A stretch of DNA of 64,000 nt from Oculina patagonica (taxonomy: Eukaryota): positions 31,310,001 through 31,374,000 of the forward strand of contig NC_135765.1 in the NCBI RefSeq assembly GCF_052425735.1. The letters run 5' to 3'. Of the stretch, positions 41,539 through 44,500 are shown piece after piece. The translations under genes and the position numbers were made by a program. The notes beneath the pieces were generated by a model. It saw nothing but the letters and a program-made list of their open reading frames with translations. It was not told the origin of the DNA and did not search any database. The stretch's first letter is position 1. Each line of letters opens with the position of its first letter.

Positions 41539-44500
41539 ATGAGTGACGGAGAAGAGGAAATTCCCAAAGGCGCCGAAGGCGGTCTTCCAACAGAAACCGG
41601 CGCGCCAAAACAAGAAGCGAAGCCACTACCAAAAGCTTCAAAAAGTGCATCGCAGGAGGAGAGTTCTGAAATTCAGCAGCTTGTGAATACCTTATCCCAG
41701 GCCCTGAAGCAGAGCATGGTGGTTTCTAGCGAAACGGAATCCAGGAGGAACGTACGAGCTCCGCGTGTTTATTCAGTGGGTCAAAATTTCAAAACATGGC
41801 TTTCGCAGTTTCTTCAGTATGCAAATCTCGTACATATCAAGCCTTCAGATCGTCGAGCTTATTTGCTCACCCTACTGGATCAACCGGCCTACAAAGCGGT
41901 TGAGCTGCTCAAGCTTTCGGGATCGTTAACTTTCGAGGAATTCACGGCACAACTGATCCAAAGGTTTGATTCGGGCAAGACGAAAGAAGATTATAAATTG
42001 CAGTTACGGGCTAGGTGTCAAAGGCCAAATGAGGACTTCGAAGCATTCGCCGATCATTTAATGGAGCTAGTTGAAAATGCCTACCCAGAGGCAGCTTATT
42101 CCTTCAAGGTGGAACTGGCAAGAGATCAGTTTATTCAAGGAGTGGCAATCAGTGATGATTTACGAGAAAAAGTTTTCATGAGTCAACCGGCGTCGCTTTT
42201 GGAGGCTGTTCGTGTTGTTCGTCGGTTGGAAAGCGCGCGTAAAGCTTGCCAGGCCGTGCCATCTGTGGAAAAGAAAAAGTCGGTGAATGTGGTGAGTGCT
42301 TCAGCGGATGGTGACAAAATTTCGACTGAGATTCGTGAGCTTAAGGAGATAGTCCTTGGTATGAATGTGAAAATTCAAGAGCTGGAAAGGAAAGCTGAAT
42401 CGACGTCGACTGCACGGCGCCGCAATGATGGGGTGTGTTTTGCGCGAACCTGGCCATTTTGCTCGGAGTTGTCCATACAAAGAAGGGGGAAACAGAGCTC
42501 GGGGCCTGCCGAGGGCCAGGCAGTCCCCGTGAGGCCCACAGTGGTGGCCCAAGCACCAGAAGTCGCCAATGAGGTAAACAACCCTGCTTTTATAAGTAAC
42601 AATGTACTTTCTGCCATATCAGACTCTGGAATCTATATTTCAGGACTTGTCAACCATAGTGTAACTTGTATATTGCTAGACACTGGTGCAACTGTTAGTG
42701 TTTTGAATGAGGAAACATGGAGAAAAAGTGGACATGTCTCAAAAGTCAACCCAGTGACTGGGACCCTGACCACTGCAAATGGAAATGAATTAATGGTTCT
42801 GGGAGAAACAAAAGTTAGATTTCGAGTAGGAAACATTGATTGTTTCTGGTCAGTCATGATTGCACGGGGCCTATCCCATGATTGCATACTTGGCTCAGAC
42901 TTTTTCCAGCATTTTGGCTGTCAAATTCACTATGACACTGGAACCTTTGTAGTTGGCCATACCGAAATTCCAATCAGGTACAGCAAGGTTACACCAAGTG
43001 TTTGTAGAATTTTTCTGAGTGATGACATACAAGTAGAACCCGGAACTGAGCAAGTATTTGAAGCCAAATTAGAGAATGGATATGATCGTAACACTGGCAG
43101 TCCTAGGATTTTAGAGGAGTCAAAGGAACTGAGGGGCAAATCAGAAATTAATATAGCTCGTTCGTTAGTGATCCCCAGGGATGGACTGACCATAGTTCGA
43201 GTTGCTAACTTCTCGGATAGGCCCATCAGACTGCGGTCAGATTTTCCTGTTGCTGAATACCACCCTATTAGTAGTGTAGATGGCCATGTTGTTCCCATGG
43301 AAATGGATCCAGATGTTACAAGTGCCTCTCATCCATCTTGTTCGGTTATTGACAGACCAGTAGTGAAAGATGAGGAGCCAATGAAGGAAGAAAAGTGGAA
43401 ATCAAGTTTACAAGGTAACCTGGAAGGGCTGTCAGAAGACCAGCGAGGACAATTTCTGTCTCTAGTAACAGAATACGAGGACATCTTTGCGAAGGACAGC
43501 TCTGATTTAGGAAAGTCGGGCCTCTTAGAACATTCCATCGACACCGGTGATTGCAAACCAGTGAAACAGCCTCCCCTTCGGGTACCACCCTACCAGCGAG
43601 AAGTTATTGATCAGCAAATAGATGAGCTGCTAGCTACAGGCAGGGTTGAACCGTCTCAAAGTCCATGGAGCAGTCCAGTGGTGCTTGCAAGGAAACATGA
43701 CGGAACATATCGTATGTGCATTGACTTCCGTAAACTTAATCAGTCTACAAAGAAGGATGCCATACCCCTGCCTCGGACAGATGATTTGTTGGAGGCCTTG
43801 GGTGGAGCTCAGTGGTTTTCTAGTCTGGATTTGGCTTCGGGGTACTGGCAGATGCAGGTGAAAGAAGAGGATAGGCCTAAAACAGCTTTCTCAACTCATC
43901 GTGGACAGTTTCAGTGGACAGTTATGCCATTCGGATTGACAAACGGACCAGCTAGCTTTACCAGATTAATGAATCTAGCACTCAATGGTCTCACCTGGAC
44001 CCACTGTTTAGTGTATTTGGATGATATCATCATCTGGGCTCCTACCTTTGAAGAACACATTCGCCGTCTGCGGTTGGTGTTCGATCGTATAAGGGCTGCT
44101 GGTTTGAAACTTAAGCCAACTAAGTGTCGATTTCTCAGAAAGGAAGTTGCCTTTCTGGGACATGTGGTGTCTTCCGATGGGATAAAGACTGACCCTGAGA
44201 AAGTTAAAGCCGTCAAAACATGGCCAGTGCCAGTGAATGTGAAAGAGCTTCAAAGCTTCCTTGGTCTTGCTAGCTATTATAGGAAATTCATCCTTGGATT
44301 TTCCATCATCGCTGAGCCTCTTTATCAACTCTGTAGGAAGAATGTGGCGTTCACTTGGCAACAGGAACAACAGTCAGCATTCGAGGAACTGAAAGACCGC
44401 CTGGTAAGCGCGCCAGTGCTAGCATATCCCGATTTCAGTCCTGAGGCAGGATCTTTCATACTTGACACTGATGCAAGCCAATACCATGGAATTGGAGCAG

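Follow-up and report, generated by a model that had tools for sequence, protein, structure and literature searches.

A complete LTR retrotransposon of the coral Oculina patagonica is read as one uninterrupted gag-pol frame. The explanation that we consider likely, with good confidence, is that its family has two ORFs linked by a -1 frameshift cassette, and that this copy is an accidental fusion produced by a 5-nt deletion and is probably non-autonomous. The element lies in a window of 64,000 nucleotides (contig NC_135765.1, positions 31,310,001 to 31,374,000, forward strand), to which all coordinates refer. The features of the element are as follows.

41326..41329, no strand: left copy of the target-site duplication, 4 bp, bases matching 47209-47212
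41330..41502, + strand: 5' LTR, 173 bp, TG...CA, direct repeat D12
41504..41515, + strand: putative primer-binding-site-like stretch, starting with TGG 1 base past the LTR (sequence inspection)
41539..46902, + strand: fused gag-pol ORF, 1,787 aa from the first ATG (ORF listing, Pfam, core motifs)
47022..47035, + strand: polypurine-tract-like stretch ahead of the 3' LTR (sequence inspection)
47036..47208, + strand: 3' LTR, 173 bp (direct repeat)
47209..47212, no strand: right copy of the target-site duplication, 4 bp, bases matching 41326-41329

The element spans 41330-47208 and is bordered on both sides by the 4-bp target-site duplication. Its domain order and Pfam matches place it among the Ty3/Gypsy (Metaviridae) LTR retrotransposons: a TG...CA LTR pair, a target-site duplication and the order gag-protease-RT-RNase H-integrase are all present, and the primer-site and polypurine look-alikes occupy their expected places. 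The 5' and 3' LTRs differ by 2 mismatches, at 41421 and 41460. The frame at 41533-46902 runs for 1,789 codons from stop to stop without interruption, and Pfam finds in it a PNMA-type capsid (positions 82-214; E 2e-06 against Pfam PNMA), an aspartyl protease (368-458), RT (718-876), RNase H (940-1073) and integrase (1208-1377). A motif search located the core motifs of protease, RT, RNase H and integrase. The integrase HHCC pattern gave no match in a pattern search, and Pfam Integrase_H2C2 matches at E 3.9e-17. An 81-nt tandem duplication (46434-46594, D19, 88% alike) is seen in the acidic tail of the ORF after the integrase. Sampled-word matches to the window include coral metagenomes, and the named homologues are from stony coral.

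The insertion has split a rhodopsin-family GPCR gene, in whose coding sequence the element lies antisense.

40844..41329, - strand: C-terminal half of the interrupted GPCR gene, 85% identical to the paralogue at 62098-62583, ungapped
47209..47883, - strand: N-terminal half of the interrupted GPCR gene (Pfam 7tm_1, E 4.6e-24)

The paralogue at 61503-62583 has both halves joined without a break. One sequencing run (X4) contains an empty-site junction that is exact over 29 nt, which suggests that the insertion is not fixed; the GPCR knock-out allele is thus probably polymorphic. In the surroundings, paralogous 7TM GPCR genes that are 75-90% alike are clustered on the two strands (49285-50404, 52252-53214, 55304-56337 and 61376-62581), and at least the first of them is broken across frames as a pseudogene or through an assembly indel. 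A tRNA-Lys(CTT) gene is located at 39847-39922, ~1.4 kb upstream of the 5' LTR. Farther away, 22113-22689 is a degenerate TTG/GTT repeat array with a long T run at its end, and 2-11021 contains a number of long open frames rich in cysteine and with a recurring motif, which seem to be the exons of one large repeat-protein gene.

The break in the reading of gag is found at the zinc knuckle.

42436..42472, + strand: broken CX2CX4HX4C zinc knuckle; the ORF frame carries its first Cys, the +1 frame its His and last Cys
42442..42445, + strand: place where 5 nt present in the family are missing (4 of the 4 runs compared)

The residues C-F-A at 42436-42444 are in the frame of the long ORF and the rest of the knuckle, G-H-x4-C, is in the +1 frame from 42446, exactly as the original prediction had read it. 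The Pfam search found no zinc knuckle in the long ORF, in agreement with the claim that the product lacks a nucleocapsid finger. The +1 frame yields half a zf-CCHC match (profile positions 8-17 of 18, E 0.019, under the curated cut-off), and this half-knuckle motif occurs a single time in the six frames of the window. The +1 frame corresponds to the old gag frame; it passes through G GGA AAC at 42487-42493 and terminates at the TGA at 42530-42532, with pol lying in -1 with respect to it, and related elements bear out this predicted arrangement. The heptamer is out of phase in the fused frame, so that ribosomes would indeed enter it out of register as had been proposed. A -1 slip from the fused frame would lead into the third frame, with a stop ~40 codons past the break.

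Comparison with relatives indicates that the fused frame is peculiar to this copy. In each of four coral runs, from four studies, a single contig spans the knuckle, and it has 5 extra bases following 42442 that are supported by all of the listed depth (258/258, 268/268, 9/9 and 526/526; the depth is that listed for the contig and is not read as a copy number). These are four of the 14 runs that contain half or more of the sampled words, and contigs lose rare variants. The 5-nt loss deduced in the original prediction from the spacing of the knuckle, and with it the reading of the single ORF as a gag-pol fusion, is borne out by the frames and by these extra bases. At the protein level, 30 of 65 Gag-length homologues have the full CX2CX4HX4C, as had been expected of relatives with two ORFs, and 28 of these 30 terminate within 35 residues; the knuckle-bearing homologues mostly have Gly-Asn at the heptamer position. 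Homologues of this two-ORF type include P0001 (91% identity, 47 members) and P0002 (96%, 7 members). The other 35 Gag matches are without a complete knuckle, mostly because they end earlier or are frameshifted, and are uninformative, not contrary. None of the four matches among long homologues (982-3,128 residues) is a clean fusion: three are pol-only calls (with 12, 63 and 232 members) whose start lies just downstream of the shift site, and the fourth, a chimeric gene model, skips the knuckle.

The same picture is obtained from metagenome loci. There are 15 of them, and 10 reach the cassette; L002 is identical to L001 there and was left out of the counts, L006 stops at the knuckle, and L011-L013 and L015 show neither a knuckle nor a nucleotide match over the cassette. 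In all 9 related loci scored, the -1 (pol) frame is open for no more than 21 codons upstream of the heptamer, vs 318 in the window. On the strength of the 5 extra bases in the runs, the short Gag homologues and the lack of a clean fusion among the long ones, we assign the family a two-ORF layout. The fused frame, which if shared by the family would have contradicted the original prediction, is seen in none of the 4 runs, none of the 9 loci and none of the 4 long homologues. A ~1.1-kb insertion with inverted ends, probably a small DNA transposon, is present just upstream of the knuckle in L009 (~1961-3105). Among viral contigs, 42 pattern matches were found and none was confirmed.

The cassette bypassed by the fusion has the following parts.

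42487..42493, + strand: slippery heptamer G GGA AAC, in phase with the old gag frame and out of phase with the fused frame
42494..42499, + strand: spacer, 6 nt, constant in length and variable in sequence among relatives
42500..42529, + strand: hairpin of stem 1, in which 42500-42510 pairs with 42519-42529 (10 pairs, C-U mismatch at one position)
42513..42518, + strand: predicted 5' arm of stem 2, within the hairpin loop (window pairing and relatives)
42530..42544, + strand: predicted connecting loop, 15 nt, opening with the old gag stop codon 42530-42532
42545..42550, + strand: predicted 3' arm of stem 2, 6 bp (32/36 cells paired in 6 divergent sequences)

The heptamer is identical in 6 of the 9 related loci scored, GGGAAAA in one and altered in two. 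In the old gag frame of the window, and in L003, L004, L007 and L014, a heptamer of the form X XXY YYZ is in phase with gag and pol is open in -1. From the heptamer onward, the window and the 9 loci align without gaps through the 6-nt spacer and the 30-nt hairpin. In the outer nine positions of stem 1, 81 of 90 cells are paired across the 10 sequences, and only 34-53 if one side is slid by 1-3 columns; the structure was derived from the scored sequences, by which it is favoured over the slid versions. Compensatory changes that alter both sides occur at pairs 1, 3, 5 and 6. The two innermost pairs are not conserved, leaving a conserved core of 9 bp. A significant fold from the window sequence alone was rejected: there is no clear excess over shuffles (z -0.3, -0.76 and -1.84), and the 6-bp stem 2 has a shuffle p of 0.079. 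Rfam gave no relevant match over the cassette region, with two chance-level lncRNA matches at 42300-42700. We predict that this conserved cassette acts as a -1 frameshift signal where gag ends, pol lying in the -1 frame. To have called it established was an overstatement, as frameshifting itself is a prediction from anatomy and covariation. A spacer is present as originally described, with a length of 6 nt, not 7, if the closing pair 42500-42529 is counted.

For the second stem, the loop 42513-42518 has two candidate partners in the window, a proximal one of 5 bp at 42533-42537 and a distal one of 6 bp at 42545-42550. In a joint test on the 6 divergent members of the 10 scored sequences, the distal range has 32 of 36 cells paired and the proximal range 17 of 36. 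Shuffles averaged 15.5 with a maximum of 25; none of 20,000 reached 32, a result that is optimistic because the column range was picked after the data had been seen, and 6,198 of 20,000 reached 17. A single position of stem 2 is occupied by C-G, G-C and U-A pairs in different elements. In three of the 9 related loci (L005, L008 and L009), stem 2 or the heptamer is weak or disrupted, and these loci appear decayed. The pseudoknot is predicted to reach 42550, with 42513-42518 paired to 42545-42550. The original prediction had described a two-stem pseudoknot, but the end that it gave the structure, 42540, falls short of the last arm, and the fragment 42480-42545 suggested for testing would cut that arm.

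An alternative view of the RNA, which we regard as unlikely, accepts the deletion and holds that the stimulator is the stem 1 hairpin only, or the hairpin with the proximal partner 42533-42537, without a long-loop pseudoknot. It bears on the RNA structure alone and can hold together with the account of the deletion given above. The hairpin by itself has a folding energy of -19.5 kcal/mol, the 5-bp proximal pairing is free of mismatches in the window and L001, and stem-loops can reportedly stand in for pseudoknots in frameshift stimulation, according to a published study. The proximal match, however, falls to 1-3 of 5 pairs in L004, L005, L007, L008, L010 and L014, and its score is at the level of shuffles; this partner was rejected. 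It would also leave a loop of 3-4 nt to span a stem of 10-11 bp, which is sterically unlikely. The distal pseudoknot is retained here as the preferred structure. A different doubt concerns the deletion itself, which could be an assembly or consensus error, the true copy having an intact knuckle and two ORFs like its family. The deletion is found in no contig of the four runs compared, where rare variants are lost; the best run contains 83% of the sampled words, and RNA runs no more than 10%. Neighbouring GPCR paralogues have split frames (pseudogenes or assembly indels), and the very long T run at ~22571-22680 hints at a rough region. Set against this, the other 5.3 kb of the ORF are without a frameshift, the deletion site is not a homopolymer, polishing of a multi-copy element would be expected to draw the sequence toward the family form, and no run is tied to the individual from which the window comes. 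The copy also has several other private changes, as expected from real post-insertion drift: relative to the family contigs it shows two differences in the 5' LTR and, among the rows listed, 4 internal substitutions, 2 of them synonymous. Near 41598, where gag encodes the N-terminal part of its product, it exceeds the main family contigs by 3 nt and stays in frame. An error of this kind is improbable in our judgment, and we infer that the 5-nt deletion is present in the DNA of the animal.

If the deletion is real, the fused form might represent a spreading single-ORF subfamily, mobilised in trans or else autonomous as Gypsy elements with a natural single ORF are, that has dropped both the knuckle and the frameshift. 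No damage is apparent in the enzyme motifs, in either LTR or in the primer-site and polypurine stretches, and Ty1 and Ty3 deletion mutants are described as transposing when proteins are supplied in trans (PMC4974528). There are also other fusions in the clade, since in 3 of the 65 Gag matches (P0030, P0034 and P0061) gag reads into the pol frame through other indels. These three, however, join at different points, and two of them retain the knuckle and shift after it; accidental fusion would then be a common type of decay in the clade. The fusion seen here recurs in no run, locus or long protein compared, and the bypassed cassette is the same as that of the family, as expected for a recent break. 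We consider such a subfamily highly improbable. It is likewise very unlikely, if slightly less so, that the fused copy without a knuckle is genuine, is expressed and is copied in trans, and so offers a snapshot of a transition from two ORFs to one or acts as a trans-dominant brake on its sisters. The fusion is ordinary decay of a single copy.

The proposed signal fits well with known systems. Of the 51 animal retroelements covered by a 2003 survey, 28 had pol in -1, and the heptamer G_GGA_AAC is listed among those most prone to shifting (PMC5009743). Ty3/Gypsy elements with pol in the -1 frame share with the coral element the LTRs, the target-site duplication, the order gag-PR-RT-RH-IN and a tandem-slip heptamer at the gag end; the coral copy differs in its deletion-fused gag-pol and missing knuckle. 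The mammalian Gypsy-derived genes PEG10, PNMA3 and PNMA5, as well as Rtl3, are described as having GGGAAAC followed by a structure 5-8 nt downstream (PMC11299033; PMC13622457; bioRxiv 2021.04.23.441185; PMC11011659). PEG10, PNMA3 and PNMA5 thus resemble the coral element in the heptamer GGGAAAC and the downstream structure, and the coral Gag matches Pfam PNMA. In contrast, these are domesticated host genes in which frameshifting has been measured, whereas the coral element is mobile with a full pol and its frameshifting is predicted. The coral cassette and the mammalian PNMA3/5 signal may possibly share ancestry; the comparison made here covers the heptamer and the spacing. The IBV frameshifting pseudoknot is stated to need 11 bp in stem 1 (PMC5009743). 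The coral structure has the same H-type outline, in which stem 1 is long, at 11 positions in the window copy, and stem 2 short, but its stem 1 has a mismatch and a conserved core of 9 bp, so that the resemblance is one of shape only.

For the defects of this copy, the Ty3 GAG3-POL3 fusion mutants and zinc-finger mutants are laboratory analogues. A study of the former is said, by its title, to report a capsid limit. Ty3 is a yeast element with a +1 shift, and in the coral copy a single natural deletion accounts for both defects. The zinc finger of Ty3 is described as critical for RNA packaging (PMC4974528).

Based on these observations, we propose the following course of events. The element would belong to a multi-copy stony-coral Gypsy family that keeps gag and pol in frames of their own, and whose Gag has one CCHC knuckle near its end and a stop 19 codons on. 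By anatomy and precedent, it is very likely that most ribosomes on family members make Gag and a minority slip -1 on G GGA AAC to make Gag-Pol, the slip being stimulated by an H-type pseudoknot 6 nt downstream with a stem 1 of 9-11 bp, a stem 2 of 6 bp and a 15-nt loop. The present copy would have inserted antisense in the GPCR coding sequence and, probably once in place, lost 5 nt from within its knuckle. This deletion puts gag into the pol frame, and the copy consequently encodes only one polyprotein, without the nucleocapsid finger. Every ribosome on it would run directly into pol and cross the heptamer out of phase, and the ratio of Gag to Gag-Pol would be lost. The original prediction of Gag-Pol as the only product stands for the single fused frame; its further claim of no free Gag is less secure, as the protease might still free capsid from Gag-Pol. 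That the bypassed cassette has stayed intact is most simply explained by a recent break, and its sequence is also pol coding sequence.

An autonomous member would have an intact CX2CX4HX4C and an in-frame gag stop; in this copy the knuckle is split and the stop bypassed. The earlier suspicion that the copy is non-autonomous is well founded on that count: the copy is probably unable to retrotranspose alone, though its cis-acting signals seem undamaged. Its sisters might provide proteins or package its RNA, which is possible given that the Ty deletion mutants move in trans.

A search of the cnidarian and invertebrate Metaviridae literature by title and start of abstract, with most subscription papers outside its range, returned no paper on such a signal. 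The present results would provide, for a cnidarian Gypsy clade with a PNMA-like Gag, a covariation-supported candidate for a -1 frameshift pseudoknot, a type of signal that is already well known. They also illustrate that an element may show a seemingly perfect single long ORF and near-identical LTRs and yet be a defective member of a two-ORF family; screens in which ORF length decides what is 'intact' will misjudge such a copy.
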